A model generated the notes under the pieces. It saw only the letters and a list, made by a program, of their open reading frames with translations, ran no database searches and was not told where the DNA came from. A stretch of DNA of 40,691 nucleotides from Chloroflexota bacterium. Lineage in GTDB: Bacteria > Chloroflexota > Dehalococcoidia > SZUA-161 > SpSt-899. The stretch lies in contig JABHWQ010000358.1 in the NCBI GenBank assembly GCA_018657655.1, positions 1 through 40,691 of the forward strand, read 5' to 3'. Made by a program: the position numbers and the translations under genes. Numbering within the stretch: the first letter of the stretch is position 1; every line of letters begins with the position of its first letter. Shown piece by piece: positions 2,843 through 40,505 of the stretch.

Positions 2843-2872
2843 TTCAAACACAATTCCTCAAATCGAGATTGT

Positions 2873-3041: not shown

Positions 3042-3095
3042 GTACTAATGTACTATACTGTGTGTACTATGCTTCACTTAGCGTGTTAGGTGAAG
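3042..3095 (+). promoter_or_regulatory. candidate regulatory region upstream of the glycan island (GTACTA repeats plus hairpin)
   Basis: GTACTA occurs at 3042, 3050 and 3064, and TGTACTAT occurs twice 14 bp apart. A TATACT -10-like hexamer lies at 3054-3059. A 9-10 bp hairpin, CTTCACTTA...TTAGGTGAAG, spans 3072-3095. No convincing -35 element. Confidence 0.2.
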
Positions 3096-12574: not shown

Positions 12575-12673
12575 TAAGGATTCTGTGTAGTTGCTATATC
12601 GGAAACTGCCAACACAAATCAATTATATCATTAGAAACACTATTGAAAGACATAATTCTCGGATAGTACATGA

Positions 12674-12702
12674 TTTACAATTGGCTGTTCCACAGATAAA
12701 TG
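12674..12702 (+). promoter_or_regulatory. weak sigma70-like promoter candidate in the 147-bp gap before the PseG-like gene
   Basis: TTTACA (12674-12679), 17-nt spacer, TAAATG (12697-12702). The leader would be very short and the taxon is unknown, so support is weak. Confidence 0.15.
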
Positions 12703-12721
12703 TTTTTCCGGTGAATGTAAA

Positions 12722-23171: not shown

Positions 23172-23226
23172 CTAATGCTACCAACGGGAAATGCGGCGAT
23201 TCTCGGAAAGCTCACATATTTTTTAA

Positions 23227-26506: not shown

Positions 26507-26509
26507 ATA

Positions 26510-27481
26510 GTGTTTAAAAACCTCGCGAAGAAGTGTATCCGATCCAAACCGGTTCAAGCATTGCTTGCTGCTGATATTGTTTTTAACCAAGCCTGCAAGA
26601 ACTCGGTTGTAATTCTTCTATACCATGATGTTTCGGAACATCCTGGTGAATTTAGTCGCATATATAATCTGAATGTACCACCAAATGTATTTGATCAGCA
26701 AATAAAAATACTAAGCAAATTATTCAACGTCATTACACCACAGCAATTAATTGCGGGAGAATATGAAACACCGGCAGCTCTGATTACCTTTGACGATGGA
26801 ATGGTAGGTTATTTCGAAAATGCTGTTCCCATTATGAAGCTTTATCAGTGCCCATCAACAGTCTTTCTGAATATGGGCCCGGTAAATGGAGATATCTTTT
26901 GGGCGGGATTAGTAACCTATCTTTGCGAATATGATCAGCGCTTTCTGGAAGCTCTAATAGACTATTATAAAGGAGCGGTTCCAAAACCGCACCATCTATA
27001 CTGTGCACGTCAAATGGTCGAGGAGTATTTGGCTGAGAATGACCAAAACAGTATATATCAAGCTGCTCGGAACTTCTACGGTGGATTCGCTACAAGACAA
27101 CACCTCGATTCGGTAGATAATGATGAGTTGGTATATTTTGGCAATCATCTCTACAATCACTATAACGCTACCATGCTATTTGATAACGAATTGAAGGAAT
27201 CTTACCTAAAAAATCGAGACGAACTTTTACAATTTAATAATAGTGTGGAGCTTTTTAGTTATCCCTTTGGCCAACCAGGTAGCTGCTACAACCAGAATAC
27301 AGATTCTTTGATCTCCGATTGTGGATCTCAGAAACTATTCACAGCTAAACCAGCCGTCAATTCGGATATGACGCGAAACATAATGCATAGAATTCCGTTA
27401 ATCGGTGATATGTGTTTTGAACAGGACATCAAGTCTGTTGTATCCTATTGGAAACTGAGGAGATTTATCGATCGTGACTAG
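26510..27481 (+). CDS. polysaccharide deacetylase (NodB/CE4 family)
   Basis: 323 aa with a GTG start after AAGGTAG. Motif 1 is ALITFDDGMVGY. Downstream His-containing motifs include YFGNHLYNHY. Confidence 0.75.
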   Translation: MFKNLAKKCIRSKPVQALLAADIVFNQACKNSVVILLYHDVSEHPGEFSRIYNLNVPPNVFDQQIKILSKLFNVITPQQLIAGEYETPAALITFDDGMVGYFENAVPIMKLYQCPSTVFLNMGPVNGDIFWAGLVTYLCEYDQRFLEALIDYYKGAVPKPHHLYCARQMVEEYLAENDQNSIYQAARNFYGGFATRQHLDSVDNDELVYFGNHLYNHYNATMLFDNELKESYLKNRDELLQFNNSVELFSYPFGQPGSCYNQNTDSLISDCGSQKLFTAKPAVNSDMTRNIMHRIPLIGDMCFEQDIKSVVSYWKLRRFIDRD

Positions 27482-27692
27482 TTGAATTTAAACATAGATC
27501 GCAAAGTGCTATAATTATTATCCAATGAGAGCCATGTTTTAAATTAGGGTCAAACGAACGTGATATAACAATCGAGAGTCATATGGTCGTCTCAACCATC
27601 CCAAAAGATATTGTGGGAGTTACAATTACACAAATGATGTACAGGAACTCGAGGATCTGTTTATCCAAATTTATGTTAAGGCGCAATTGTTG

Positions 27693-28736
27693 ATGGGAAA
27701 CGCACTTAAAGCCGGTATAGTTGGCTATGGATATATGGGGCAAATTCGTAAGACTGTAATCGAGGAACACCCCAATTTGGAGCTATCTGCAATATGCGAT
27801 GCGAATTTGCTATTAGCTGACTCGGATTTTGGATGTCCGATTTTCACAGACTATCGGGATATTCTCGAAAAGGATGTTGATATTGTCTTCGTATGTACTC
27901 CCAATGCTTTCTCCCCTGAAATAGTCATAAGCAGTCTGAATCAAGGAAAGCATGTATTCTGTGAGAAACCGCCCGGAAGGTCGATCGATGATATCAGAGA
28001 CATCATCGAAGCTGAAAAGGCGAATACACCAGCAAAGCTGATGTTTGGATTTAACCATCGCTATCACCCGTGTGTCAACGAAGCAAAGGTGTTGGTTGAT
28101 AGTGGGAGATACGGAAAGATACTCTCTCTGAGAGGCGTCTACGGGAAATCGGGAGGATTGGGTTTTGAGGACTCCTGGCGCAACAAAAAAGAGATTTCAG
28201 GGGGCGGGATTTTATTGGATCAAGGAATCCATATGATGGATCTATTCAGGCTATTCTGCGGAGACTTCCAGGAAGTAAAGGGTTTCGTGACGAATTCATA
28301 CTGGAATATCGATATGGAAGATAATGCTTTCGCGATGCTGCGAAATGAGCAAGGCCAGGTGGCGACGCTACATTCATCTGCAACCCTATGGAAGCATACG
28401 TTCCGTTTAGAAGTTTTCATGGAACAAGGCTATTTTGTGATATCGGGTTTGTTATCCAAGACGGGCAGCTATGGCCGAGAAACGTTAGTAGTTGGGAAAC
28501 GGCAATTTGAGGATGAGACATTCGCATTAGGGAATCCTCGGGAAGAGGTGACCTATTTTGACCGCGATCTTTCATGGATTACCGAGGTGAGTGACTTCGT
28601 GGATTGTATTCAAAATGACAAGTGCGTTACCAACAGTTCATCCACTGATGCTTTGAAAGTTATGGAACTCATTGGCCGGATATATGGTGATGACCCAAAA
28701 TACAAAGTGGAGAGATTTGGGGGAGGAGGGGAATGA
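27693..28736 (+). CDS. Gfo/Idh/MocA family NAD(P)-dependent oxidoreductase
   Basis: Motifs: LKAGIVGYGYMGQ (Rossmann fold), HVFCEKPPGRS (EKP motif) and FNHRYHP. The ORF is open from TTG 27687, but the ATG at 27693 is more likely. Confidence 0.85.
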   Translation: MGNALKAGIVGYGYMGQIRKTVIEEHPNLELSAICDANLLLADSDFGCPIFTDYRDILEKDVDIVFVCTPNAFSPEIVISSLNQGKHVFCEKPPGRSIDDIRDIIEAEKANTPAKLMFGFNHRYHPCVNEAKVLVDSGRYGKILSLRGVYGKSGGLGFEDSWRNKKEISGGGILLDQGIHMMDLFRLFCGDFQEVKGFVTNSYWNIDMEDNAFAMLRNEQGQVATLHSSATLWKHTFRLEVFMEQGYFVISGLLSKTGSYGRETLVVGKRQFEDETFALGNPREEVTYFDRDLSWITEVSDFVDCIQNDKCVTNSSSTDALKVMELIGRIYGDDPKYKVERFGGGGE

Positions 28737-29746
28737 AGACCACTGTTCAGTATGACGATATAAGAGAGTTTGAGTTCAAACCCGGCACAACTCTGAGTTC
28801 ATATCTGCAACTTACGCGAGATGATGTGAAATCGTATTTTCTCAGTGGGTCCTCTTTGGTGGATTGTAGCTGCCCTGCATGTCTCAGCCATGAGCGCAGT
28901 GAGGCTTTTTCCAAGTTCGGATTGAACTATCAGGAGTGCTCTAATTGCCAGACACTCTACGTTTCCCCCCGACCCGATGAAAACGCGATTGATGAATACT
29001 ATCGGAAATCAAAGGCCCGTGAATTCTGGAACCAGCATCTACTAACAGAGACCGAAGCAAAACGTCGAGAGAAACTATTTAAACCGAGAGTCCAGTGGAT
29101 CATTGAGACCGTTGAAGAATACTTCCCTTCCGCACAGCGTTTTTCCAGTATTAACAGTGTTCATCCCCCGTTCCTTCAGGAACTGGTTGAAAGCGACTAT
29201 TTTAAAAAGATACGCATCGTCACTCCAAGGGCTGATTTGAGCCATGTTAACTGTGAGAAGGATGGCGTCCAGGTTGTTAATGATGCAATTGGCGCTTTCT
29301 CGAATCCAACAGATGCTGTTACTCTTTTTGAAGTGATCGATCGGCTTTCCGATGTCAATGCTTTCGCCGGGGCTCTTGATAAAATGCTGGTTCCAGGTGG
29401 ATTGTGTTTTTTGACTACAATCTCTATTAGTGGATTTGATCTACAGGTACTGTGGGACAAGTCCAATAGCATATTCCCTCCGGATCGAATGAATGTGCTT
29501 TCCACAGAAGGTTTAATGCTCTTGTTTGAAAGACACGGTTTTGAATGCATTGAACTAAGTACTCCCGGGCTGCTGGATGTTCAGATCGTTGCCAATGCAT
29601 ATAAAGAAAATGCTTCGATTGAAATACCGCGATTTGTACGATACCTTATGGAGCAAAGGGATAACGATACCCTTCAGACATTTCAGGAATTTTTACAGAT
29701 GAATCGGTTGAGTTCATTTGCTCGGGCTGTGTTCCAGAAGAAATAG
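28733..29746 (+). CDS. Zn-ribbon plus class I methyltransferase-fold protein with a degenerate SAM-binding loop
   Basis: 337 aa. Zn ribbon: CPACLS...CSNCQTLYVSPRP. MT motifs II/III: DAVTLFEVIDRLSDVNAFAGALDKMLVPGGLCFLTT. Where LDxGCGxG is expected the sequence reads FSSINSVHPPFL, with no glycine. Confidence 0.6.
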   Translation: MKTTVQYDDIREFEFKPGTTLSSYLQLTRDDVKSYFLSGSSLVDCSCPACLSHERSEAFSKFGLNYQECSNCQTLYVSPRPDENAIDEYYRKSKAREFWNQHLLTETEAKRREKLFKPRVQWIIETVEEYFPSAQRFSSINSVHPPFLQELVESDYFKKIRIVTPRADLSHVNCEKDGVQVVNDAIGAFSNPTDAVTLFEVIDRLSDVNAFAGALDKMLVPGGLCFLTTISISGFDLQVLWDKSNSIFPPDRMNVLSTEGLMLLFERHGFECIELSTPGLLDVQIVANAYKENASIEIPRFVRYLMEQRDNDTLQTFQEFLQMNRLSSFARAVFQKK

Positions 29747-29760
29747 GGGAGGGAGATTCA

Positions 29761-30360
29761 GTGTCCTACGTTAGTGAATATTTGGATGAAGTCAAGAAAG
29801 TTGTCGATGGAATAGACCAGTCCGTGATAGATAAGATGGTCGATCTGCTTGTCGGTATTAGAGAGAGCGGAGGTCGCCTTTTCTTTCTTGGAGTAGGTGG
29901 TGGCGCGGGTAATGCATCCCACGCTGTCAATGACTTTCGCAAAATCGCGGGAATTGAATCCTACTCACCGAGCGATAATGTCTCTGAGCTAACTGCACGG
30001 ACAAACGATGACGGGTGGGACACGGTATTTGTGGAATGGCTCAAAGGTTCCAGGCTCAATCAGAAAGACGGGGTATTCGTCTTCTCTGTTGGTGGTGGAG
30101 ATGCAGAACGAAACATCAGTGCAAACCTGGTTCGTGCGCTAGAATATGCCCAAACTAAGGGGTCGAGAATAATGGGCATCGTTGGTCGTGACGGTGGGTA
30201 TGCCGGCAAGATAGGAGATGCATGCCTGATTATACCAACAGTCAACCCAAATACAATAACCACTCATACTGAAGCCTTCCAGAGTGTTATCTGGCATCTG
30301 GTAGTGTCTCATCCGAAGGTACAGGTTTCAGAAATGAAGTGGGAATCAACGACGGAGTGA
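29761..30360 (+). CDS. SIS-domain sugar-phosphate isomerase, GmhA-like (single domain, no CBS)
   Basis: 199 aa with a GTG start after a strong RBS (GGGAGGGAG). Motifs: GGRLFFLGVGGGAGNASHAVNDF, VFSVGGG, RIMGIVGRDGG. Confidence 0.75.
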   Translation: MSYVSEYLDEVKKVVDGIDQSVIDKMVDLLVGIRESGGRLFFLGVGGGAGNASHAVNDFRKIAGIESYSPSDNVSELTARTNDDGWDTVFVEWLKGSRLNQKDGVFVFSVGGGDAERNISANLVRALEYAQTKGSRIMGIVGRDGGYAGKIGDACLIIPTVNPNTITTHTEAFQSVIWHLVVSHPKVQVSEMKWESTTE

Positions 30361-30364
30361 GCAA

Positions 30365-31048
30365 ATGCCGATTTTCTTAGATACCGGGAATATTAGTGAT
30401 ATTGAGAAATACCTTAAGATGGGGATCATCCGAGGCGTAACCACAAACCCTACCATTCTGCTCCAGGCTGGTGTTACTGGTGGAATGAAAGGGATCAAGG
30501 AAAGATCGGTGGAAATCGCCAACCTGGTTGATCCTTACCCCCTTTCAGTGGAAGTGACAACGAATGATCCTAAGATGATGTTGGAGCAGGCACAAGAGTT
30601 TGCAGGGTGGGCCAAGAACATCAATGTAAAAATAACGATCCACGGACCGAAGGGTGAACTAGACAATCTGGAAATCGTGCATGAATTGGAAAACAAGCAT
30701 GATATTCGCGTCAATGTGACTGCGATGATGAGTGCTCAACAGTGTCTTCTGGCTGCGATGGCGGGCGCTACGTATGTATCATTATTTGGTGGACGGGTGA
30801 ATAACATGGGCTACAACTCCTGTGAAGAAATCAGAAAACTCCGCACGGTCCTTGATGATTTCTCATTGGATGCTAGTATTATTATCGGTTCCACGCGCGA
30901 GGTGCTTAATATCATAGAGTGGCTTGAAGCTGGTGCGCATTTGGTAACCGTAGTTCCCAAATTACTTGAGGGAATGATCGTTCACCCTTACAGTAAAGAG
31001 ACTGTACAGATGTTCCTGGATGACGCTGCCAAAACTGAGAAGGCATAG
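30365..31048 (+). CDS. fructose-6-phosphate aldolase / transaldolase subfamily 3B (FSA/TalC-like, class I aldolase)
   Basis: 227 aa. Motifs: MPIFLDTGNISDIEKY...IRGVTTNPTIL, NINVKIT (Schiff-base Lys region), VNVTAMMS and YVSLFGGR. Confidence 0.85.
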   Translation: MPIFLDTGNISDIEKYLKMGIIRGVTTNPTILLQAGVTGGMKGIKERSVEIANLVDPYPLSVEVTTNDPKMMLEQAQEFAGWAKNINVKITIHGPKGELDNLEIVHELENKHDIRVNVTAMMSAQQCLLAAMAGATYVSLFGGRVNNMGYNSCEEIRKLRTVLDDFSLDASIIIGSTREVLNIIEWLEAGAHLVTVVPKLLEGMIVHPYSKETVQMFLDDAAKTEKA

Positions 31049-31056
31049 CATTAACT

Positions 31057-31851
31057 ATGGCAAACTTAAATGAGAAGCGACGTGATCTGCGAGCAAAGTT
31101 GAGAAACCGTGAGCGGGTCTTTGCCGCTTGGACGTCTCTAGCGCACCCTTCGATATCCGAGGTTTTCTGCAGAATTGGCGTGGACTTTGTCGGAATTGAT
31201 ATTGAACATAGCACCATTAGCCAGGAACAGTCACAGCGAATCATCGCTGCTTGTCAGGGGAACGGTAGTTTATGCTTGCCAAGAGTAGCTTCTCACAATA
31301 TGGAGATGATCAAACGGTTACTGGATTCTGGCGCAGATGGCCTGATAGTACCGACTGTGTCTACACCTCAAGAAGTCGAACAGTTGATCTCATGGTGTAA
31401 ATATTCACCTATTGGGAAGCGTGGATTTGGAATCGCACGTGCGCAGGGGTATGGTTTTGACTTCGACCAATATACCTCGGAATGGAATGATATTTCATCT
31501 CTTATCATCCAAATAGAAACGATCCAGGGTGTTGAGAATATCGATGATTTATTGAAATATGAAGAGGTTGATGCGGCAATGGTGGGGCCCTATGATCTTT
31601 CAGCTTCGTTGGGTGTTCCGGGTGAATTGGAGCATCCCAAAGTGGAAGAGGCCTGTAAACGCATTATTGATGCCTGTGTCAGACATGGCAAGGCGTGTGG
31701 TACCCAGTTAGTCGAACCTGATCGTGAGAATCTGAAGAAGAGTTTTTCTTCAGGATATACATTTGCAGTTCTGGCCTCGGATGTCTTCCTTCTATGGAAG
31801 TGGGGCGACCGGATGAAATCGCTTGTTACGGAGCTAAGGCCAGAGGCATAG
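31057..31851 (+). CDS. HpcH/HpaI-family class II (metal-dependent) pyruvate aldolase
   Basis: 264 aa. Motifs: WTSLAHPSISEVFCRIGVDFVGIDIEHS, IIQIETIQGVENIDDL (Glu ligand) and AAMVGPYDLSASLG (Asp ligand). Confidence 0.8.
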   Translation: MANLNEKRRDLRAKLRNRERVFAAWTSLAHPSISEVFCRIGVDFVGIDIEHSTISQEQSQRIIAACQGNGSLCLPRVASHNMEMIKRLLDSGADGLIVPTVSTPQEVEQLISWCKYSPIGKRGFGIARAQGYGFDFDQYTSEWNDISSLIIQIETIQGVENIDDLLKYEEVDAAMVGPYDLSASLGVPGELEHPKVEEACKRIIDACVRHGKACGTQLVEPDRENLKKSFSSGYTFAVLASDVFLLWKWGDRMKSLVTELRPEA

Positions 31852-32511
31852 GTGCTGATGACGATCAAAACGATAGTTCTCGATTTTGATGGTGTCATTG
31901 TTGAATCGGAGGAGATTAAGAACCAGGCATTTCGAGACCTGTTCAGTAATTATCCGCAATATGTTGACCAAATCATGAGTTATCATCTGGCGCACAAAAC
32001 AACATCACGATATGATAAATTCGAATATATAGTGACCCATATTCTTGGTGAGACTTGCGATGAAGCAAGAGCATCCGATATAGACTCCCGGTTTTCGCCC
32101 CTTATTCGCCAACGAATAATCGAATGCTCGTTTGTCCGGGGTGCAGAGGAATTTCTTGAGTATTTTTCCACAAGCTTGCCGTTATATTTGGCTTCAGCTA
32201 CTCCGCAGGAGGAACTGGAGAGCATCATTAAGGCCAGAACGATAGATTCTTATTTCGCAGGCGTATATGGTAATCCGTGGCAAAAAACTGATGCGATCCG
32301 ACAGATACTGGAATTAGAATGTGTTAGTCCGGATTCCGCAGTCTATGTTGGAGACACCAGGGATGACTATGAGGTCGCTGAAGCGTTAGGAGTTATCTTT
32401 GTGGGCCGGACGAATCAGCAAACCTTTGATGATCTGGAAATCATGGCTTATAGTGACTTAATTGAAGTTAAAGCATGCGTCCAGAAAATGATGGGAGGAG
32501 CTGCGTACTGA
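31852..32511 (+). CDS. HAD-superfamily hydrolase, subfamily IA (phosphatase; phosphoglycolate phosphatase/beta-PGM-like)
   Basis: 219 aa. Motifs: IVLDFDGVIVESE (DxDG motif I), LASATP, VYVGDTRDDYEVA. The start is GTG 31852 or ATG 31858. Confidence 0.8.
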   Translation: MLMTIKTIVLDFDGVIVESEEIKNQAFRDLFSNYPQYVDQIMSYHLAHKTTSRYDKFEYIVTHILGETCDEARASDIDSRFSPLIRQRIIECSFVRGAEEFLEYFSTSLPLYLASATPQEELESIIKARTIDSYFAGVYGNPWQKTDAIRQILELECVSPDSAVYVGDTRDDYEVAEALGVIFVGRTNQQTFDDLEIMAYSDLIEVKACVQKMMGGAAY

Positions 32512-32539
32512 TTCGTAGGCCGGATAGGGTATATACGGA

Positions 32540-33319
32540 ATGTCAGACTATTTATCAGATCTTTTTAAACTGGAGGGAAAAGTGGCCATTGTCATCGGTG
32601 CTGCTGGTTTGCTTTGCAGTGAGATGGCATCAGCACTTGCCAAGGCAGGCGTGAAAGTCTGTGTGGCAGACAGGAATGTTGATGGACTTAAAGGTATCGT
32701 TGATGCCATTGTTGCCGATGGCGGAACTGTGACGAACTTCAGTTTGGATGTAACTCATAAAAGCGAACACGAGCGGCTACTGGCAGAGGTGCTTCAGGTT
32801 TATGGCAGAATAGATATCCTGATTAACGGAGCCGGAATCAACGCTCCCACACCGGTGCTGGATATTTCTGAGGACGAATGGCAGAGTATTCTGGATACGA
32901 ACTTGAAGGGTACCCTCTTCGCATGCCAGGTTTTTGGGGGGCATATGCTTAGTAATGGGCGGGGATCTATCATCAATATCTCATCAGCTTCGTCCGGCCC
33001 GCCGCTGTCAAAAGCTTTCACCTATTCTGTATCGAAAGCGGGCGTTAAGAATCTTACACAGAACCTGGCTCGAGAGTGGGCACCGTTTAACGTCCGTGTA
33101 AATGCGTTGCGACCAGGCTTTTTCCCAACGGAATGGAGTCGCCAGAATTTCATTTCACCAGACAGGGGAAAGTACATTTTGGGGCATACACCTATGGGGC
33201 GCTATGGAGAGCCTGTAGAGCTTGTGGGAGCCGTTCTCTGGCTTGCCTCCGATGCGGCAAGTTTCGTAACCGGTGCGGAGATTGCTGTTGACGGTGGTTT
33301 TACCGCTATGACAATCTAG
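32540..33319 (+). CDS. short-chain dehydrogenase/reductase (classical SDR)
   Basis: 259 aa. Motifs: VAIVIGAAGLL, NGAG, the catalytic YSVSKAG, and PGFFPTE. Confidence 0.85.
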   Translation: MSDYLSDLFKLEGKVAIVIGAAGLLCSEMASALAKAGVKVCVADRNVDGLKGIVDAIVADGGTVTNFSLDVTHKSEHERLLAEVLQVYGRIDILINGAGINAPTPVLDISEDEWQSILDTNLKGTLFACQVFGGHMLSNGRGSIINISSASSGPPLSKAFTYSVSKAGVKNLTQNLAREWAPFNVRVNALRPGFFPTEWSRQNFISPDRGKYILGHTPMGRYGEPVELVGAVLWLASDAASFVTGAEIAVDGGFTAMTI

Positions 33320-33392
33320 AACATTTGAAGCGCCATTTGGACATTATTCATTTCATTCCAATCAGAAAACATATCAACTGAAGGTCATTATA

Positions 33393-34160
33393 GTGAACAA
33401 AGAGTCGGCTGAAAAACGTACAGTCATTATTACTGGCGGAACCACAGGGATTGGTGCTGCAGTATCTCAGGCTTTTTACGCGCAGGGCGCAAATGTCCTC
33501 ATCGCCGCACGTAATGATAATGGGATTGCGGAATCTCTGGGAGAGAGGGCCCATTTTCAACAAGCTGATGTAAAAGAGCAGGTGCATCATCAATCGCTGG
33601 TGAAGACGGCTCTCGAATGGACAGGCCGACTTGATGTCTATGTTAACTGTGCCGGATATTCCGAATGGCGGCCGATAATTAGGGTCGATGAGACTTTTTG
33701 GAACGACATGATAGATACCAATCTTAAAGGAACGTATTGGGGTTGTAAGGCTGCTGCCGAACGAATGGAAAGGGGCGGATGTATTATCAATGTATCCAGT
33801 CTTGCGGGTAAACGTGGTAGCGCGAACAATACCGTTTACTGTGCGTCCAAGTTTGGTGTCAATGGCGTAACCCAGGCATTGGCGAAGGAACTGGGCCCGA
33901 GAGGTATCCGAGTTAATGCAGTATGCCCCGTGTATGTGGATACCGACGGCTTACAAAAGGCTCTGATTGATAAGGAATCACCTTCACAAGGTGAAGACGT
34001 CGGATGTTTTTTAGGGAAATTTGCCATCGAGAATTCAGCGTTATGCAGAATTCCGTCGGCGGATGAGGTCGCTAACCTTTGTGTGTTTTTATCCTCTTCG
34101 GAGGCATCTGCTATCACTGGGCAGTGCATAAACGTAGATTGCGGAGTTCTACCTCAATAG
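33393..34160 (+). CDS. short-chain dehydrogenase/reductase (FabG-like SDR)
   Basis: 255 aa with a GTG start. Motifs: VIITGGTTGIGAA, NCAG, the catalytic YCASKFG, and CPVYVDT. Confidence 0.85.
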   Translation: MNKESAEKRTVIITGGTTGIGAAVSQAFYAQGANVLIAARNDNGIAESLGERAHFQQADVKEQVHHQSLVKTALEWTGRLDVYVNCAGYSEWRPIIRVDETFWNDMIDTNLKGTYWGCKAAAERMERGGCIINVSSLAGKRGSANNTVYCASKFGVNGVTQALAKELGPRGIRVNAVCPVYVDTDGLQKALIDKESPSQGEDVGCFLGKFAIENSALCRIPSADEVANLCVFLSSSEASAITGQCINVDCGVLPQ

Positions 34161-34179
34161 ACTGTTAAGATTAAAGCCT

Positions 34180-34953
34180 ATGCCTACTAAGAAAGTCACC
34201 GTGATTATCCCCGCGCGGATGGGCTCCTCCAGATTCCCCGGCAAACCTTTGGCCAAGATACTTGATCTACCGATGATTGAACATGTACGAAGACGAGTCA
34301 CCATCTGTGGTATTGCCGATGAAATCTATGTTGCCACTTGTGATGATGAAATCAAGGAAGTTGTTGAGTCGTATGGGGGAAAAGTTATCATGACTGCCCA
34401 CACGCATGAAAGATGTACCGATCGGATAGAGGAAGCTGCCTCGGTCATTAATGCGGACATCGTGGTCAATGTGCAAGGGGACGAACCTTTACTATTCTCT
34501 GGGGCGGTTCGTGATGTTGCTCAGCCCTTGGTAGAAAGCAGTGATACATCTTGCTCCTGTTTGGTTTATCCCATTGTTGACCTAGCGGAATTGGGTAATA
34601 TCAACGTTGTGAAATCGGTCCTCTCCCAAAACAATCAAATCATGTACTTGTCTCGATCGCCTATTCCCCATTTCGAGGAAAATGAAAATTACCCTCTTTA
34701 CAAGCAATCAGGGATAATGGCGTTTCAGAAAAACTTTCTGCATAAATACTCACGCCTTGCGCCGACTCCTCTGGAAAAGGCAGAGTCCGTGGATATGTTG
34801 CGGATACTGGAACATGGATACGATATTCTAGGAGTTGTTACACCATACGAAACTCAGGGGGTTGACGTACCGGAAGATATCCAAAGAGTCGAACGAATAT
34901 TGTCCGAAGATGAAACACAGCGAAATCTCTATGAGAGGATACTGAATCTGTGA
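34180..34953 (+). CDS. KdsB-family cytidylyltransferase (CMP-3-deoxy-ulosonate synthetase-like)
   Basis: 257 aa. Motifs: VIIPARMGSSRFPGKPLAKILDLPMIEHV and VVNVQGDEPLL, the two KdsB hallmark motifs. Confidence 0.8.
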   Translation: MPTKKVTVIIPARMGSSRFPGKPLAKILDLPMIEHVRRRVTICGIADEIYVATCDDEIKEVVESYGGKVIMTAHTHERCTDRIEEAASVINADIVVNVQGDEPLLFSGAVRDVAQPLVESSDTSCSCLVYPIVDLAELGNINVVKSVLSQNNQIMYLSRSPIPHFEENENYPLYKQSGIMAFQKNFLHKYSRLAPTPLEKAESVDMLRILEHGYDILGVVTPYETQGVDVPEDIQRVERILSEDETQRNLYERILNL

Positions 34954-35873
34954 AGCCGAAGATATTCGTAGCGCTATCGACGTTTGCGGAATTCGGGGAT
35001 GCACCTCTCAAGCTTCTTGATAAGAGTGGAATAGAGTATTCCTTAAATACACTAGGGCGACGCTTAGTCAGAGAGGAAACCGTTGAGATGGGCAGGGATT
35101 ACGAAGGGATTATTGCTGGTGTCGAGCCTTACGATGACTATGTTCTCGATCGACTTCCTAGACTGCGTTGTATCAGCCGCTGTGGTGTTGGCGTAGATAA
35201 CATAGCTTTAGAGAAAGCCAAAAAGAACGGAATAGTCGTTAGAAATACACCGGATGTAGTAGTATTGCCTGTTGTTGAATTGACGATTGCTATGATCTTT
35301 GACCTGCTTCGCAAATTGTCATATCATACGAGTTTGCTGAGATCGAAGCGTTGGGAAAAGAAAGCGGGTAATTTACTGACCGGCAAAACTGTAGGAGTTG
35401 TAGGTCTGGGAAGGATCGGTAAAAGGGTTGCCGAGACTCTGAAGAAATTAGACGCCGATGTATGCGGGGCGGATCTGTTTCCGGATTTGGATTGGGCGAA
35501 AAGGGTGGGTGTCCGAATCATTTCTACAGAATCGCTGTTGAGCGAATGCGATCTCGTGAGTATTCATGTTTCGCTTCTGGCAGATCAGAGGTTCGTCCTG
35601 GGTCAAAAAGAAATCGCAAGTATGAGAGAGGGCTCATTTGTTGTCAATGTTTCCCGGGGTGGCGTCATCGATGAAAATGCATTGTACAATGCATTGAAAG
35701 TACATCATCTCGAAGGTGCGGCATTAGATGTATTTCAAGAAGAACCATATACTGGTCCATTGTGCGATCTCGATAATGTTGTGTTGACTCCCCATTTGGC
35801 AACTTTGACACGGGAATCAAGGGTACAGATGGAAACTGAAGCGGTAGAAAATTTACTGGATGCGTTGAAATAA
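34950..35873 (+). CDS. D-isomer-specific 2-hydroxyacid dehydrogenase (phosphoglycerate/glycerate dehydrogenase-like)
   Basis: 307 aa. Motifs: GKTVGVVGLGRIGKRVA, VSRGGVIDENAL, LDVFQEEP and TPHLA (Arg/Glu/His triad context). GTGA overlap with the KdsB-like gene. Confidence 0.85.
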   Translation: MKPKIFVALSTFAEFGDAPLKLLDKSGIEYSLNTLGRRLVREETVEMGRDYEGIIAGVEPYDDYVLDRLPRLRCISRCGVGVDNIALEKAKKNGIVVRNTPDVVVLPVVELTIAMIFDLLRKLSYHTSLLRSKRWEKKAGNLLTGKTVGVVGLGRIGKRVAETLKKLDADVCGADLFPDLDWAKRVGVRIISTESLLSECDLVSIHVSLLADQRFVLGQKEIASMREGSFVVNVSRGGVIDENALYNALKVHHLEGAALDVFQEEPYTGPLCDLDNVVLTPHLATLTRESRVQMETEAVENLLDALK

Positions 35874-35925
35874 CAACAAGACATTATTGAAGAGATGAAT
35901 CAGTCTGATACATGAGGAAGACGAA

Positions 35926-37341
35926 ATGAACATTTTGCTAATCTTTCCGGATATCCATTCTTTTCATGATGATCCCTACACCCCTGGGCTCGATTGTATT
36001 GCAACGTATCTAAAATCCTTTGGGCATGAAGTGAGATTAGAATACGTGTCATCCACCGATCAATTTAAGGATGTTGTCGATACTGTTAAAAGCTTCGCTC
36101 CCAGGATAGTCGGGTTCACCTCTGTAGAAACCCAGTTTCGATATGTCAAAGTGCTTTCCAGATTGATAAAGGAAAACCATGAATGCATCACCGTTTGTGG
36201 CGGGGTCTTTGTGACGCTTTTTCCTGAAGTAATACGAGAAGCGGAAAATCTTGATGGTGTAATAGTAGGAGAGGGTGAGATTGCTTTCGCTGAACTTATA
36301 GAAAAGGTGGGGAAAGGAGAGGCCTATCGCGATATCAATAACTACTGCTACTATGATAAGTCATCTGACCAAATCGTGAAAAACCCCTTGAATCCAATAG
36401 TAGAGAATTTAGATCGATTTCCGTTTCCGAATAGATCGATTTTTGATTTTCAACGTATCATAGATACCAAGGATTACGTACCTTTTTATTTTAGCCGTGG
36501 ATGTCCGTATAGTTGTAGTTACTGTTGTAATCACGCTCTTGGGAAAGTATATGGGGGCAGTGTTAACAAAGTCAGACGTAGAAGCGTAGCTAATTGCATG
36601 GAAGAAATCGAACATGTTTTTTCGAATCACAACATACCCAAAAGTGCGTTTCTCTTGTTTGGTGATGATCTCTTTACCCAAGATAAGAAATGGCTTGGAG
36701 AATTCTTAGGAGAGTACAAGAAGAACTATCGACTCCCATTTTCTTGTAGCACTCGATCGAACATCTGTTCTGACGATATGTTCGCTAGCCTTAAAGATGC
36801 AGGGTGTCTAAGGGTATTGATGAGCATAGAATCAGGAAATGATTTTATCAGGAATGAAGTGATGAAGCGGAGTATATCGAAAGAACAGATATTCAATTCC
36901 TTCAAGTGGGCCCATAAAAATGGCATAAAGACGAACGGTATATGTGTAATTGGAGTTCCTTGTGAGACACGGGAGATGATCGAAGAAACTATTGATGTGG
37001 TGGCGAAAACATACACTGAAGGCTGTGGTGTCAATGTGTTTTATCCCTATAAAGGCACGGAGTTGCATAGAATCTGTGAGGAAAACAACTTTTTGCCCGA
37101 TACTATAGGGGACCTCGAAGAAAGGAAAGAATCGATGCTGAATTTACCAACGATTTCTAAAGAGGAATTGGTCTATTTTCATGACAATTGGAAGAGACTG
37201 ATTGTCAAACGCAGGTCTTTATCGTACAGAGTCAAATATCGAGCTAAGAACATACCACATTTCTTCTTTCGGAAGATATCTCAGATTAGTCCCGGACTAG
37301 CAAAATTCATAAAGAAAATAGTAAAACGGAAGCCGTTCTAA
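35926..37341 (+). CDS. B12-binding-domain radical SAM enzyme (class B radical SAM methyltransferase-like)
   Basis: 471 aa. The N-terminus has a cobalamin-binding-type Rossmann segment (MNILLIFPD...IVGFTSVETQ...VCGG). This is followed by FYFSRGCPYSCSYCCNH (CxxxCxxC) and IESGND. RBS GAGGAAG upstream. Confidence 0.85.
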   Translation: MNILLIFPDIHSFHDDPYTPGLDCIATYLKSFGHEVRLEYVSSTDQFKDVVDTVKSFAPRIVGFTSVETQFRYVKVLSRLIKENHECITVCGGVFVTLFPEVIREAENLDGVIVGEGEIAFAELIEKVGKGEAYRDINNYCYYDKSSDQIVKNPLNPIVENLDRFPFPNRSIFDFQRIIDTKDYVPFYFSRGCPYSCSYCCNHALGKVYGGSVNKVRRRSVANCMEEIEHVFSNHNIPKSAFLLFGDDLFTQDKKWLGEFLGEYKKNYRLPFSCSTRSNICSDDMFASLKDAGCLRVLMSIESGNDFIRNEVMKRSISKEQIFNSFKWAHKNGIKTNGICVIGVPCETREMIEETIDVVAKTYTEGCGVNVFYPYKGTELHRICEENNFLPDTIGDLEERKESMLNLPTISKEELVYFHDNWKRLIVKRRSLSYRVKYRAKNIPHFFFRKISQISPGLAKFIKKIVKRKPF

Positions 37342-37403: not shown

Positions 37404-37790
37404 ATGACAGAATCCCGACATAAAATCGCCTTTATTGTTCCCACAAGAAATCGTTTTGAACTTCCGACCCAACTGTTAGACAGCCTTCAGATCCAAAGTA
37501 TTCAAGCTGATCAGGTTGTTGTGTCAGATGGGAGCTATGAACCTATAGAACCTAATATCAGAGGGTTTCTTTCCCCCAATATTGAATGTATGAGGGCATT
37601 CCCTCCCGGATTGACCAAGCAACGCAACGCAGGGATTCGGGCATTGGGGGCGGATATAACGCTGGCTGGTTTTTTGGACGATGACATGGTTTTTGGAAAT
37701 GATGCGATTGAGTCCATGCTGCGTTTTTGGGAGCACTGTGAGGATGCTGAAGGTACTTGGATTCGTGCTTTGTGCAAACGAAAACAATAG
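37404..37790 (+). pseudogene. 5' fragment (128 codons) of a GT2 glycosyltransferase, paralogous to 39561..40505
   Basis: MTESRHKIAFIVPTRNRFEL...VVVSDGS...FPPGLTKQRNAGI...ITLAGFLDDDMVF...MLRFWEHC aligns residue-for-residue with the N-terminus of the downstream GT2. That is roughly 55-60% identity by eye over ~117 aa. The frame then diverges and stops, and the next gene starts 38 nt later, leaving no room for the missing ~200 aa. Confidence 0.6.
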
Positions 37791-37827: not shown

Positions 37828-38448
37828 ATGAAATATGCTAATCCTGTGAATCTCACCAAAGTCCTGCTAAATGAACTCCGCGCAGTTAGTTCGTTTTGGC
37901 TGAAGTGGATGCCCGGAAATGTTGGCGCTAAGTTGAGATATTCAATTTACAAGAGGAGATTCAAATCCTGTGGGGAAAGAGTCGATATTCCAGAAGGATG
38001 CACGATTTGGGGATTCCAAAACATAGAGGTGGGTAGTGGTATTGGGATGGGCCAGGGCTCTCTGATTTATGCTGGTTTACATGGGGGTAGCGAAAGGATC
38101 GTAATTGGCAACAAGGTTTCTTTGAATTCGAATGTAATGATCAACGCGGATAAAGGCGGTGAAATTATTATTGGTGATAACACAATTATTGGGCCAAATG
38201 TCGTGATAAGAGCCAGCAATCATCATTATGAGAAAACTGATATTCCGATAAAAGGTCAGGGGCACCTATCCGGAACAATAAATATCAAAGAGGATGTTTG
38301 GATTGGAGCAAATGCGGTCGTTTTACCAAACGTAAACATTGGGAAGGGTGCAATCATTGCTGCTGGCGCTGTAGTTGTCAAAGATATCGATGTCTATGAA
38401 ATTGTAGGAGGAGTTCCTGCGAATCGAATTGGCTCAAGGATAAAATAG
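37828..38448 (+). CDS. hexapeptide-repeat (left-handed beta-helix) O-acetyltransferase, WbbJ/LacA/Maa-like
   Basis: 206 aa. Motifs: [64 protein letters not shown]. Confidence 0.85.
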
Positions 38449-38482: not shown

Positions 38483-39499
38483 GTGCGAGAAAAGGAAATG
38501 GGAACAACGGAAATAGTCAATGAACTTTATGATCGCTACTATATCCACGATAGTACGCCTGAAGATGTCATTTCATCTCATTGGAAACATTACCAGAGCC
38601 AGGTAAAAGTTCGTATCTCTGAAGGGAATATCGAGTCACTTGTTGGGAGTGCTTTTGGAGATTTGGAACAGCGGGCTATTACTAACCGAATGTTATCATG
38701 GCTGACTATTGGTAGCTACTGGCTAAGATTGCCACGCAAAAAGGAGATTTTGCAGCTGATCAAGTCTTCGATTGATCTTACCAAAAGAATGGGGCTACCG
38801 TTTACATATGATTGCTTTCGCCAGGTTTGTTCATTAGTGCGTGTGAACCAATACATCACTGAAAAGAACTTGGATGCCAATCCAAATGTCATAATCATTG
38901 GTGATGGTTATGGTTTTCTTGCTTCACTAATTAAAGAAATATATCCGGGCTCAACTATTTTGTTAGTTGATCTTGGTAGGATTTTGCTGTTTCAAGCCTA
39001 TTATTGTGGCAAGGCACATCCTCACCGATCCCACTTCTTGATGAAGGGAATTGAAGAATTCGATCAAAAAGATTCAAGCCATGATTTTGTGTACTGTCCG
39101 GCAGAACATCTGAGATTTGCGAAGAACCAGTCATTTGACCTGGCAATAAATATCGCATCTATGCAAGAAATGAACCAACAGTCCATTTTGGGATATTTCT
39201 CTTTCTTACGCGAACATCTGAATCCGGATAACCTCTTCTATTGCTGCAATCGGGAAGAAAAGACTATGCCTGGAGGCGAGATATCGAGATTCCTTGAATA
39301 TCCCTGGCGTGAAAAGGATGTCCATTTGGTTGACGAATACTGCCACTGGTACAGATATTTTCTATCGCTTCATAGAACACAGAATGGGCCCAAAATCCTG
39401 AATTCTAGGATTCCATTGGTTAATTACTTCGATGGGCTCATCAGGCATAGACTGACTGTTCTTGAAACGACTGATGATTGTAACATCGGAGAGGAGTGA
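38483..39499 (+). CDS. putative sugar O-methyltransferase-like protein (class I MTase fold, uncharacterised family)
   Basis: 338 aa. Motifs: VIIIGDGYGFLASLIK...ILLVDLGRIL (GxGxG plus an acidic residue at the end of beta-2) and DLAINIASMQEM. An alternative start at ATG 38498 has a better RBS (AAAGGAA). Confidence 0.5.
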   Translation: MREKEMGTTEIVNELYDRYYIHDSTPEDVISSHWKHYQSQVKVRISEGNIESLVGSAFGDLEQRAITNRMLSWLTIGSYWLRLPRKKEILQLIKSSIDLTKRMGLPFTYDCFRQVCSLVRVNQYITEKNLDANPNVIIIGDGYGFLASLIKEIYPGSTILLVDLGRILLFQAYYCGKAHPHRSHFLMKGIEEFDQKDSSHDFVYCPAEHLRFAKNQSFDLAINIASMQEMNQQSILGYFSFLREHLNPDNLFYCCNREEKTMPGGEISRFLEYPWREKDVHLVDEYCHWYRYFLSLHRTQNGPKILNSRIPLVNYFDGLIRHRLTVLETTDDCNIGEE

Positions 39500-39560
39500 G
39501 TACAGAAGAAAAGCTGTTCACATACCGCAGGCAGTATTCCAAGCGAGGTACAAATGGACC

Positions 39561-40505
39561 ATGACTGAATTCCGTCATCGAATTGCCCTCATCATTCCTA
39601 CAAGGAATCGGCCTGAACTTCTAGAGAAATTGCTGCAAAGCCTCCAACACCAGACGGTCCATGCCAGTCAGGTAATTGTTGTAGATGGAAGTGACGAGCC
39701 AGTAGAAACAGTCACAAAGCGGTTTGCTATCCCTGGTATTTCTTATGTAAGAGTTTTCCCGCCCAGCTTAGCGAAGCAACGAAACGAGGGCATCAAAACT
39801 CTGAATGATGATATCACACTGGCTGGCTATCTAGATGACGACATCATACTTGACAAAGACGCTATCGAAGCTATGCTTCGTTATTGGGAAGAATGCCCTG
39901 ATGATGTGGGAGGCAGTTCGTTTCACATTACCAACAACGAGCTGGCCAGCCCATTGGTGAGAATACCTGGGAAATTGCTGGGAAAACTATTCTGGTGCGA
40001 TGATTTCGGGCAAGGCAAAGTCCTCAGGTCCGGGTTCGCGACGCCGGTTATACCGGTGCTGAAAGATACCTATACGGAATGGCTATGCGGAGGAGCTACC
40101 GTTTGGAAAAAGGAGATTCTAGAAGACTCGAAATACGATGAAAAGTTGGGAGGTTCATCCTACGTCGAAGATATCGACTTTAGTTTTAGAGCGGCCAAAC
40201 ACTACAGATTAGTAGTTATACATGGTGCAAAAGTGCAACATTACCCTCCCCCATTTAATCCAAGGAAAAGTTATTTAATGGGGAGAATGAATGTGCATCA
40301 CCACTACCATTTTGTAAGAAAGAACCCTGAGCTTTCGGTACCTTTATTCTATTGGGCGATACTCGGCGAGGCTATCATTCTTCTTTTTGCCAGTATCCCA
40401 AGACGCAGTTCCTATGGGATTTACAAAGCGTTTGGGAACATAGCTGGGTTGTTTGATTTGATGCGGAGAAGACACTTCCAAACAGACCAGGAGTTCAGAA
40501 AATAG
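39561..40505 (+). CDS. family 2 glycosyltransferase (GT-A fold)
   Basis: Motifs: IALIIPTRNRPELLEKLLQSLQHQT, VIVVDGSDEP, and LAGYLDDDIIL (DxD). A hydrophobic C-terminal helix is present. I chose ATG 39561 (GAGG 12 nt upstream, and the same MTE-x-RH start as the paralogous fragment) over the ORF-maximal TTG 39462. Confidence 0.75.
   Translation: MTEFRHRIALIIPTRNRPELLEKLLQSLQHQTVHASQVIVVDGSDEPVETVTKRFAIPGISYVRVFPPSLAKQRNEGIKTLNDDITLAGYLDDDIILDKDAIEAMLRYWEECPDDVGGSSFHITNNELASPLVRIPGKLLGKLFWCDDFGQGKVLRSGFATPVIPVLKDTYTEWLCGGATVWKKEILEDSKYDEKLGGSSYVEDIDFSFRAAKHYRLVVIHGAKVQHYPPPFNPRKSYLMGRMNVHHHYHFVRKNPELSVPLFYWAILGEAIILLFASIPRRSSYGIYKAFGNIAGLFDLMRRRHFQTDQEFRK

Follow-up and report, generated by a model that had tools for sequence, protein, structure and literature searches.

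Gene content of the block at 27693-37341

The subject of this analysis is a block of eleven genes at positions 27693-37341 of a 40,691-nucleotide stretch of DNA from a Chloroflexota bacterium (GenBank contig JABHWQ010000358.1), which is referred to below, at its full length, as the window. The window forms a single large surface-glycan island with genes in one direction, and the block appears to be one copy of a gene cassette that has spread between distant lineages. The original prediction, made from the sequence alone, had described the block as an aldolase-based route, independent of phosphoenolpyruvate (PEP), to a second sugar activated with cytidine monophosphate (CMP). Families were assigned by searching the window proteins against Pfam and the curated NCBIfam models, and structural relatives were sought in the PDB. 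Together with the list of open reading frames (ORFs), these searches bore out the eleven forward-strand ORFs and the families named for them. The gaps between the ORFs range from -4 to +73 nt, and separate metagenome gene calls on the same contig (JGI 3300024259 / ENA ERZ27250158, 93.8 kb) match the ORFs, including the ATG at 27693. No cassette protein is covered by a curated NCBIfam equivalog. The block contains the following genes:

27693-28736, + strand: Gfo/Idh/MocA NAD(P) oxidoreductase (Gfo), a core gene (Pfam/NCBIfam)
28733-29746, + strand: S-adenosylmethionine (SAM) methyltransferase, Methyltransf_23, with an N-terminal CxxC...CxxC (Pfam)
29761-30360, + strand: SIS_2 protein, distantly GmhA-like (GmhA model, 46 bits against a cut-off of 209)
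30365-31048, + strand: TAL_FSA protein, transaldolase-type by its residues and its best match 3S0C, class I; an optional member
31057-31851, + strand: HpcH/HpaI class II metal-dependent pyruvate aldolase (PF03328, 104 bits)
31852-32511, + strand: HAD-IA phosphatase (TIGR01549, 31.9 against a cut-off of 23.3)
32540-33319, + strand: classical short-chain dehydrogenase/reductase (SDR), sugar-acid oxidoreductase-like (NF006132, 253 bits against a cut-off of 281)
33393-34160, + strand: second classical SDR, glucose 1-dehydrogenase/FabG-like (Pfam/NCBIfam)
34180-34953, + strand: KdsB-family cytidylyltransferase (PF02348, 164 bits; NF009905, 284 against a cut-off of 255; TIGR00466, 164 against a cut-off of 155)
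34950-35873, + strand: D-2-hydroxyacid dehydrogenase (2-HADH; NCBIfam and PDB), its start overlapping the stop of the cytidylyltransferase gene
35926-37341, + strand: B12-binding and radical SAM enzyme (PF02310 and PF04055)

Conservation and spread of the cassette

Related loci were sought in one genome per GTDB species, with the aldolase as the query and then with an alignment of aldolase orthologues. Forty loci with at least 50% aldolase identity were found, which correspond to 40 species-level genomes from about a dozen phyla, and ten of the eleven genes, all except that of the B12-radical SAM enzyme, form a syntenic cassette. As mapped by tblastn, the order in most loci is Gfo, methyltransferase, SIS, transaldolase, aldolase, HAD, SDR, SDR, cytidylyltransferase and 2-HADH. 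A KdsB-like gene is present in 29 of the 32 loci having at least 4.5 kb downstream of the aldolase, and the identity values of the other cassette genes rise and fall with that of the aldolase (r = 0.71-0.91; 0.44 for the transaldolase). Clustering of the gene families delineated three sub-modules, [Gfo, methyltransferase, SIS], [transaldolase, aldolase, HAD] and [SDR, SDR, cytidylyltransferase, 2-HADH], which are sometimes permuted, and the transaldolase and the SDR pair are optional members. The original prediction had suggested a search for genomes in which the KdsB-like, HpcH, fructose-6-phosphate aldolase (FSA), SIS and B12-radical SAM genes occur together; the first two were indeed found with SIS and with a transaldolase-type enzyme rather than an FSA, and the B12-radical SAM gene is absent from the conserved core.

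The closest cassette, with 86% aldolase identity, also belongs to Chloroflexota. Judging by record titles, the other carriers are Thermodesulfobacteriota, Desulfobacterota, Elusimicrobia, Omnitrophota, Aminicenantes, Eubacteriales, SAR324, Bdellovibrionota, Planctomycetota, Acidobacteriota and Alpha- and Gammaproteobacteria. The cassette is found in cultured Kiloniella laminariae (G21630-S1; NZ_JAPWGY010000007, locus L021), in metagenome-assembled genomes (MAGs) of Halopseudomonas aestusnigri and Pseudodesulfovibrio, and in one MAG each of Uhrbacteria (JACQSF01), from the candidate phyla radiation (CPR), and of Methanomicrobiaceae (JAFGKW01), which are archaea. With this distribution the cassette appears to be mobile and horizontally spread. 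A gene for topoisomerase VI subunit A (145-1242) flanks the cassette of the Methanomicrobiaceae MAG (locus L010), which supports a genuinely archaeal host and hence transfer of the cassette between domains.

The recurrent neighbors of the cassette are hexapeptide acetyltransferases (13 loci), NanM-type O-methyltransferases (10 loci), family 2 glycosyltransferase (GT2) genes and ABC exporters. In about 12 loci a protein of ~610 residues with a GT-B-like character (family F11; e.g. L004:4727-6583), which the window does not have, is encoded directly upstream of Gfo. It belongs to no Pfam family and contains an invariant 'TYENNPWE...GYQHTVVP' region. Its profile gave no significant PDB match, and among NCBIfam models only sub-threshold matches to 'surface carbohydrate biosynthesis protein'. 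F11 is the best candidate for the cognate transferase.

This context bears directly on whether the block is instead a catabolic or central-metabolism operon for sugar acids that lies in a glycan island by chance. The HpcH, KduD-like SDR, Gfo and 2-HADH families are those usually met in the catabolism of sugar acids. However, genes for a cytidylyltransferase, for methyltransferases and glycosyltransferases and for exporters invariably accompany the cassette, and the transporters, kinases, dehydratases and regulators typical of catabolic operons are absent. A cassette without glycan genes, which the original prediction had named as the finding that would speak against it, is not what is seen: the neighbors are GT2, GT4 and GT-B-like glycosyltransferases, ABC exporters or Wzx flippases, and Maf/MptE-like genes, as in a biosynthetic glycan-locus module. 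The context thus largely refutes the catabolic explanation, which we find scarcely credible.

The aldolase and the absence of a PEP-dependent synthase

The catalytic residues of the aldolase, H51, R76, E154 and D180, are invariant in 14 orthologues and align with those of GarL and YfaU; they correspond to H45, R70, E149 and D175 of HpaI. The closest solved relatives, GarL (1DXE) and YfaU (2VWS), are aldolases of 2-keto-3-deoxy sugar acids. The protein reached only 116-137 bits with the HpaI, GarL and RhmA equivalog models, the cut-offs of which are 369-441, and these low scores set it apart as a separate subfamily.

In agreement with the original prediction, Pfam/NCBIfam and tblastn searches revealed no KdsA- or NeuB-type PEP-condensing synthase within the block. 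A tblastn search with Escherichia coli KdsA (a query validated as DAHP_synth_1, PF00793, 241 bits), which covered the window and 121 loci, found no match. Homologues of the window NeuB were present in only 6 of the 121 loci, besides the window itself. An intact class II aldolase is thus co-inherited with a KdsB-family cytidylyltransferase in loci that mostly have no PEP-condensing synthase (KdsA in 0/121, NeuB in 6/121), in support of the original prediction. As the cassette brings no PEP-dependent synthase with it, no enzyme other than the aldolase is a candidate for forming the carbon-carbon bond of the cytidylyltransferase substrate. The archaeon, Chloroflexota, CPR bacteria and Eubacteriales are lineages that are not expected to make the 3-deoxy-D-manno-oct-2-ulosonic acid (Kdo) of lipopolysaccharide.

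The cytidylyltransferase

The best PDB match of the cytidylyltransferase is KpsU (1GQ9, 158 bits). The motifs for nucleotide and Mg binding are kept (PAR..S.R.PGKPL, QGDEP and GVDxPED), and so is SRSPIP. The residues on the sugar side are different. Four residues of E. coli KdsB, which from the KpsU and KdsB structures we take to contact Kdo, are replaced in about 50 cassette enzymes: His181 by Gln and Tyr185 by Ser, Met or Ile, both in the motif H-[ILV]-G-I-Y-[AG]-Y, and Glu210 by Asp and Gln211 by Phe or Met, both in the motif L-E-Q-L-R. The same replacements occur in full and in minimal cassettes, which argues for one related non-Kdo substrate of all versions. The cassette cytidylyltransferases form a distinct clade of the KdsB family and are probably not Kdo enzymes. 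Some carriers, such as Kiloniella, Halopseudomonas and Pseudodesulfovibrio, are diderms and should produce ordinary Kdo in the standard way, so that in them the cassette enzyme would be a paralogue with another function.

These observations weigh on the idea that the cassette is a PEP-independent supply of authentic CMP-Kdo for a capsule or another glycan. In such a route the SIS protein would convert ribulose 5-phosphate to arabinose 5-phosphate (A5P), the aldolase would add pyruvate to form Kdo 8-phosphate, and dephosphorylation and transfer to CMP would follow. The set of enzymes formally parallels KdsD/KdsA/KdsC/KdsB, and the cytidylyltransferase, with scores above the KdsB cut-offs of NCBIfam, has its closest match in KpsU, an enzyme of capsule synthesis. 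However, all four presumed Kdo-contact positions are replaced, and conservedly so; the SIS protein resembles GmhA rather than KdsD and is devoid of CBS domains; the HAD phosphatase is of type IA and not of the KdsC type; five extra conserved enzymes, oxidoreductases and methyltransferases together, would be superfluous; and the diderm carriers presumably own the standard pathway. We therefore regard a supply of authentic CMP-Kdo as improbable.

Other enzymes of the full cassette

The best match of the TAL_FSA protein is the Thermoplasma transaldolase 3S0C (113 bits), with which it shares Glu60 (SVEV), Lys86 (VKI), Phe132 (SLF), the phosphate-binding Arg and Ser-x-Arg. Where transaldolases have Glu and Phe, FSA has Gln and Tyr (Gln59 and Tyr131 in the E. 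coli enzyme), and an FSA-mimic variant in the PDB (4XZ9) differs at precisely these positions. The FSA identity given in the original prediction was rejected on these transaldolase-type residues (Glu/Lys/Phe rather than Gln/Tyr), although the protein also falls short of the transaldolase equivalog cut-off (146 against 246). The gene is missing from four loci (L009, L012, L029 and L035).

The SIS protein is similar only to phosphoheptose isomerases, with E values of about 1e-8 to 1e-12 and scores below the cut-offs, and with an E value of about 4e-8 in the PDB. Its His and acidic residues align with the metal and catalytic positions of GmhA, it lacks CBS domains, and it would be expected to produce an aldose phosphate from a ketose phosphate. 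The HAD gene always lies directly 3' of the aldolase gene in the cassette, and its product is predicted to strip the terminal phosphate of an intermediate; in 14 minimal cassettes it is replaced by a member of the inositol monophosphatase (IMPase) family.

The first SDR is nearest to D-mannonate oxidoreductase, KduD and gluconate 5-dehydrogenase and is missing from L007, L009 and L012; the second is always paired with it, and both are likely to be optional tailoring enzymes. The best PDB match of Gfo is inositol dehydrogenase 3CEA (100 bits), and the sialic-acid oxidoreductase YjhC (6O15) is also matched (63 bits). Gfo is kept in 61 related loci, its identity correlates with that of the aldolase (r = 0.86), and it is probably a dehydrogenase of a sugar ring hydroxyl or of C1. 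The methyltransferase at 28733-29746 always follows Gfo and matches no NCBIfam model. A single-sequence PDB search gave no match, and the profile of the family gave weak matches only to the O-methyltransferases StiD/StiE and UbiG, so it is probably an O-methyltransferase.

The 2-HADH is closest to short phosphoglycerate dehydrogenases (PGDHs; Pyrococcus horikoshii 1WWK, 179 bits; TIGR01327, 236 against a cut-off of 454), and its nearest relatives also include glyoxylate/hydroxypyruvate reductases. The catalytic Arg and His are kept, and the 'VRS' of the PGDH anion site is 'A-G[VL]EP' throughout the family, in a comparison with human PHGDH as the reference. The replaced anion-binding motif led us to reject a phosphoglycerate dehydrogenase that feeds 3-phosphohydroxypyruvate into the pathway, and the enzyme likely acts on a non-phosphorylated, hydroxylated 2-oxo or 2-hydroxy acid.

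The B12-radical SAM protein contains CPYSCSYC (CxxxCxxC), and all its matches are far under equivalog cut-offs. By these features it would be a class B, methyltransferase-like enzyme. It had been proposed as a pathway member, but in 14 other loci a Methyltransf_23 gene occupies its position, which marks it as a lineage-specific accessory. Unrelated B12-radical SAM genes recur beside pairs of aldolase and cytidylyltransferase genes.

Reduced cassettes

Aldolases that are 33-48% identical to the window protein lie in shorter cassettes of SAR86, Nitrospina, Polynucleobacter, Sulfitobacter, Bacteroidota, Actinomycetota, Oscillospiraceae, Lachnospiraceae, Selenomonadales and an uncultured Treponema. 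The set that is kept consists of the aldolase, the cytidylyltransferase (KdsB-like, sometimes NeuA-like), 2-HADH, Gfo, a phosphatase (HAD or IMPase) and often SIS. Phosphate-removing enzymes are encoded in 47 of 60 loci with an aldolase and a cytidylyltransferase: 30 have a HAD, 14 an IMPase-family protein and three an AroB-related phospholyase. The last three (L050:10338-11411, L128:12231-13280 and L049) are related loci of gut anaerobes, effectively one lineage, that lack both HAD and IMPase and contain within the cassette a 'sugar phosphate phospholyase (cyclizing)' (TIGR04425, 428 bits). Enzymes of the 3-dehydroquinate synthase type use 3-deoxy-D-arabino-heptulosonate 7-phosphate (DAHP), which is a 3-deoxy-ulosonate omega-phosphate, and the substitution therefore fits a phosphorylated ulosonate intermediate formed from an aldose phosphate and a C3 acid. 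The reduced loci carry genes that in other settings are connected with ulosonic acids: they have MptE/Maf-like genes, of the family of flagellin nonulosonic-acid transferases, and L128 also has a DUF386 (YhcH/NanQ family) gene beside the phospholyase. In one Oscillospiraceae locus (L129:2587-7982) the cassette comes right after a complete ADP-heptose-type module (HldD-like, HldE-like, GmhA, GmhB-like and heptosyltransferase-like), and this locus thus holds two different SIS_2 isomerases.

Gfo and 2-HADH had been taken for generic tailoring enzymes; their retention even in five-gene cassettes suggests a core role instead. Three roles of 2-HADH are possible. It could supply hydroxypyruvate as the aldol donor, which would lead to a 3-hydroxy-ulosonic acid. 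It could act with Gfo in the conversion of an aldose to an aldonate and on to a 2-keto-aldonate, in which a Pgl/NagB-family protein encoded in three loci would fit a lactonase step. Or it could reduce the aldol product to a 3-deoxy-aldonic acid.

The first of these roles leads to a variant of the pathway in which the same cassette uses hydroxypyruvate as the donor: 2-HADH would oxidize D-glycerate, derived from phosphoglycerate by the phosphatase, and the product would be a 3-hydroxy-2-ulosonic acid, similar to D-glycero-D-talo-oct-2-ulosonic acid (Ko), and not a 3-deoxy sugar. This would give the always-present 2-HADH and phosphatase a core role, and the SIS, 2-HADH and phosphatase genes are adjacent in minimal cassettes. 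It would also be in line with the PGDH and glyoxylate/hydroxypyruvate reductase relatives of 2-HADH, with the existence of hydroxypyruvate users in the HpcH family, such as the hydroxyketoacid aldolase 6R62, and with the altered sugar pocket of the cytidylyltransferase, which suits a non-Kdo substrate. However, the loss of the phosphate-binding motif of PGDH makes 3-phosphoglycerate itself an unlikely substrate, the HAD gene of the full cassette adjoins the aldolase gene and not that of 2-HADH, and the sequence does not tell pyruvate from hydroxypyruvate. We consider hydroxypyruvate rather unlikely as the donor.

The third role connects to a substituent rather than to a glycosyl donor. The flagellin of Treponema denticola carries a nonulosonic acid with a 2-methoxy-4,5,6-trihydroxyhexanoyl group (PMC13439194), which is formally pyruvate plus glyceraldehyde, reduced at C2 and O-methylated. 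By analogy, the aldolase, 2-HADH, phosphatase and methyltransferase could make a reduced and O-methylated 3-deoxy-aldonic acyl group for an amino sugar such as the nonulosonic acid of the island. The minimal cassette of the uncultured Treponema contig adjoins a Maf-like gene, the 2-HADH has kept its catalytic residues while the site at which PGDH holds phosphate is neutral or acidic, and the block of the window sits within a nonulosonic acid island. However, in the majority of cassette loci NeuB is absent from the surrounding 10 kb, no ligase, ATP-grasp enzyme, acyl carrier protein or CoA-transferase co-occurs with the cassette, and the universal ulosonate-type cytidylyltransferase, the DUF386 genes and the MptE-like genes would be left without a role, unless an unprecedented acyl-CMP is formed. 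T. denticola itself was recovered neither by the aldolase patterns, in scans with a Treponema/Selenomonadales/Lachnospiraceae aldolase alignment, nor by a search of 5.8 billion proteins, in which all hits were generically named proteins from MAGs or metagenomes. The fallback offered in the original prediction, a glycerate-type acyl group on a nonulosonic acid, has a related case in T. denticola, where the acyl group is a reduced and O-methylated 2-keto-3-deoxyhexonate, but is weakened by the scarcity of NeuB and the absence of an acyl-activating enzyme from most loci. For the same reasons, and because the cytidylyltransferase would lack a role, we place the acyl group below a CMP-activated ulosonic acid and find it distinctly unlikely.

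Proposed pathway

We lean, if only modestly, towards a reading of the block as one copy of a mobile cassette that encodes an aldolase-based, PEP-independent route to a tailored CMP-2-ulosonic acid for a surface glycan. The best reading of the window is that this would be a second acid sugar, additional to the nonulosonic acid made by the NeuB of the island. In the proposed scheme, the transaldolase-type enzyme would supply or build a ketose phosphate from the pentose-phosphate pool, from which the GmhA-like SIS isomerase would make an aldose phosphate. To this, the class II HpcH aldolase would join a C3 2-oxo acid (pyruvate or, less probably, hydroxypyruvate), and the resulting 4-hydroxy-2-oxo acid with a terminal phosphate would be a (3-deoxy-)2-ulosonate phosphate, from which the adjacent HAD phosphatase would remove the phosphate. 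Tailoring would be performed by Gfo, the two SDRs and the methyltransferases, in the lineage of the window also by the B12-radical SAM enzyme, and the divergent KdsB-family enzyme would couple the tailored acid to CMP. Nearby transferases would install the sugar, and the downstream acetyltransferase and O-methyltransferase would decorate it. The gene content, the catalytic residues, the synteny and co-inheritance, the lack of PEP-dependent synthases and the glycan-locus context on which this scheme builds are observed, and this evidence from genome comparison supports the central idea.

Several points weigh against the scheme. Its substrates, step order and chain length and the roles of Gfo and 2-HADH, like each of its steps, are inferred from the genes. 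Pyruvate aldolases are normally catabolic, and thermodynamically they are less favorable than PEP synthases. A KdsA gene elsewhere in a genome would have lain beyond the loci searched, the Kdo-contact roles of the four KdsB residues are presumed, and the SIS protein is only marginally like any characterized isomerase. The scheme gives Gfo and 2-HADH no necessary role though the five-gene cassettes retain both, and a 2-HADH that acted on the aldol product would abolish the 2-oxo group on which an enzyme of the KdsB type depends.

The acceptor determines the chain length, for which we can offer a guess within the range of C7-C11, with a C8-C10 acid favored. The candidates are erythrose 4-phosphate, which would give a DAHP-like C7 acid; A5P or ribose 5-phosphate (R5P), which would give a C8 acid; a hexose 6-phosphate, for a C9 acid similar to ketodeoxynonulosonic acid (Kdn); a heptose 7-phosphate, for a C10 acid, to which the similarity of the SIS protein to GmhA only would correspond; and an octose 8-phosphate, for a C11 acid. 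A bolder version of the proposal, which we hold only tentatively and would sooner expect to fail as a whole than to stand, combines several parts. The cassette would make an undescribed family of CMP-ulosonic acids, the skeleton of which comes from a class II pyruvate aldolase and a non-standard aldose phosphate; the pair of transaldolase and GmhA-like isomerase would make a heptose 7- or octose 8-phosphate and hence a C10 or C11 acid, or the product would be a C-methyl-extended acid where B12-radical SAM enzymes occur; the cassette would have spread horizontally through at least a dozen bacterial phyla, CPR and methanogen-related archaea; and its products could explain some of the higher-carbon alpha-keto acids seen by mass spectrometry, such as the C10 species of Magnetospirillum. 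CMP-linked C10 alpha-keto acids of unassigned structure have been reported in that genus (bioRxiv 10.64898/2026.04.20.719630), which shows that undescribed CMP-ulosonic acids exist. Magnetospirillum gryphiswaldense, from which these acids come, was not among the 80 best aldolase loci, which thus provided no genetic link to the cassette.

Surroundings of the block in the window

The block was originally delimited by a gap at 27482-27692, described as the sole non-coding gap of the island, and by the end of the B12-radical SAM gene. The gaps at 2843-3089, 12575-12721 and 23172-23547 are comparable in size. The eleven genes stand as a group, but the end at 37341 does not, as the unit reaches to ~40505. 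A terminator scan found no terminator-like site 3' of 37341, and the acetyltransferase, O-methyltransferase and GT2 genes that follow recur beside the cassette elsewhere, both of which point to a longer unit. The further features are:

27487..27515, + strand: promoter-like site (TTTAAA-17-TG-TATAAT; 10/12 matches, extended -10) within the 205-nt gap that precedes the block
37404..37790, + strand: truncated GT2 fragment (128 aa), paralogous to the N-terminal part of the GT2 encoded at 39462-40505
37828..38448, + strand: left-handed beta-helix O-acetyltransferase, of the family found in 13 cassette loci
38483..39499, + strand: NanM-type putative sugar O-methyltransferase (TIGR04371, 59 against a cut-off of 44), of the family found in 10 cassette loci
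39462..40505, + strand: GT2 glycosyltransferase, a recurrent neighbor; independent gene calls place its start at 39561

The promoter and terminator scans overall were at chance level, and the promoter-like site is weak evidence, since the counts of such sites in the region are no higher than in shuffled sequences. In the closest relative (L001) the 2-HADH gene is followed by methyltransferase, acetyltransferase and GT2 genes. In the window, the B12-radical SAM gene and the GT2 fragment replace that methyltransferase, and the NanM-like methyltransferase is inserted. This difference suggests a recombination event, of which the GT2 fragment at 37404-37790 is a probable scar.

Upstream of the block lie genes for an ABC exporter, a PseB-like dehydratase, epimerases and aminotransferases, and the nonulosonic acid pathway with its cytidylyltransferase (11807-12574) and NeuB-family synthase (13831-14856). 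There are also WbqC-, GNAT-, formyltransferase- and deacetylase-like tailoring genes and genes for large 'PFTS motif' and 'surface carbohydrate biosynthesis' proteins. Just 5' of the block, at 25715-27481, a formyltransferase-domain gene adjoins a polysaccharide-deacetylase-like gene. A 2026 preprint links the same pair, in the legionaminic-acid cluster of Ca. Kuenenia, to CMP-nonulosonic acids with one amine free and one formylated, and by analogy the NeuB-made sugar of the island may carry the same pattern. The PFTS-motif polysaccharide protein at 21204-23171 (655 aa; TIGR04417, 130 bits against a cut-off of 100) is followed, after a gap of 376 nt, by a 172-aa ORF (23548-24066) that is a truncated C-terminal copy of it (31% identity) and looks like a remnant of duplication or decay. 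In L008 and L013, homologues of the full PFTS protein are encoded 5' of the cassette. Among the nonulosonic acid genes of the window there is also one for a 717-aa fusion of unusual architecture (7430-9583), in which an RmlD-like reductase is joined to a DegT-type aminotransferase. Two neighboring acyl-CoA dehydrogenase genes at the start of the window (364-2842), right before the ABC exporter, may be an unrelated flank or may be tied to an acyl substituent.

Comparison with known systems

To our knowledge, every characterized route to a CMP-ulosonic acid (Kdo, Kdn, sialic, pseudaminic and legionaminic acids) depends on a synthase of the NeuB/KdsA type that uses PEP, and genome surveys accordingly key on these genes. 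If the proposed pathway is correct, such surveys overlook an entire class of acidic sugars on the surfaces of uncultivated phyla and archaea, and also of marine SAR86 and gut anaerobes. The cassette, which is widespread, unannotated and mechanistically unorthodox, would then also provide a new enzymatic entry to the chemoenzymatic synthesis of ulosonic acids and a gene set that can be tested against the unassigned alpha-keto acid sugars of mass spectrometry. As at least one carrier is cultured, K. laminariae G21630-S1, the question is directly testable. The statement in the original prediction that no pathway of this composition is described agrees with our searches of the full-text literature, in which no description of an HpcH aldolase with a KdsB- or NeuA-type enzyme in glycan biosynthesis was found.

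The front end of the proposed pathway resembles the lincosamide octose pathway in its composition of enzyme classes. The transaldolase LmbR moves a C3 unit from fructose 6-phosphate or sedoheptulose 7-phosphate to R5P, LmbN isomerizes the product, and the phosphatase LmbK and the nucleotidyltransferase LmbO follow (PMC5854111, PMC12945683). LmbR/N/K/O is thus a precedent for a module in which a dedicated transaldolase and isomerase, a phosphatase and nucleotide activation build a higher sugar. It has no aldolase or ulosonic step, and its product is GDP-activated, whereas the cassette would use CMP.

The aldolases GarL, RhmA/YfaU and HpaI have the same fold and catalytic residues as the cassette aldolase. 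They are catabolic, whereas the cassette enzyme scores far below their cut-offs and forms a clade of its own within glycan loci. The acyl skeleton of the T. denticola flagellin glycan fits the action of an aldolase, reduction of the 2-oxo group and O-methylation, and all three activities are predicted in the cassette. In contrast to what that glycan would require, the cassette has a cytidylyltransferase and no acyl-activating enzyme, and the aldolase pattern scans and the protein search gave no genetic link. An analogy of the SIS isomerase with Campylobacter jejuni PtmF was dropped, as the annotation of PtmF is that of an oxidoreductase; PtmA, of 254 aa, is annotated as a flagella modification protein.

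The nonulosonic acid pathways (NeuB/PseI/LegI with NeuA/PseF/LegF, and Kdn-9-phosphate synthase/phosphatase) lead to the same class of product, a CMP-ulosonic acid. They share with the cassette the NanM-like O-methyltransferase, Maf/MptE-like, DUF386 and PFTS-motif neighbors, and some minimal cassettes resemble them in a NeuA-like cytidylyltransferase. However, the cassette has no NeuB-type synthase, no UDP/GDP-HexNAc dehydratase and no aminotransferase or acetyltransferase steps, and it would begin at sugar phosphates.

The Kdo pathway (KdsD-KdsA-KdsC-KdsB, with KpsF/KpsU) follows the same logic, in which an isomerase is followed by the condensation of a C3 unit with an aldose phosphate, a phosphatase and a CMP-transferase of the KdsB family. 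Its isomerase is KdsD-like (SIS and CBS domains) and its phosphatase, KdsC, belongs to HAD-IIIA, whereas the cassette has a GmhA-like isomerase and a HAD-IA or IMPase-family phosphatase, and it differs further in the replaced sugar-side residues of the cytidylyltransferase and in the extra conserved oxidoreductases and methyltransferases. In the Kdo pathway the condensation is carried out by PEP-dependent KdsA; in the cassette it would be carried out by a class II pyruvate aldolase. In summary, the biosynthesis of CMP-ulosonic acids is itself known, and the new element would be an aldolase in the place of the PEP synthase.

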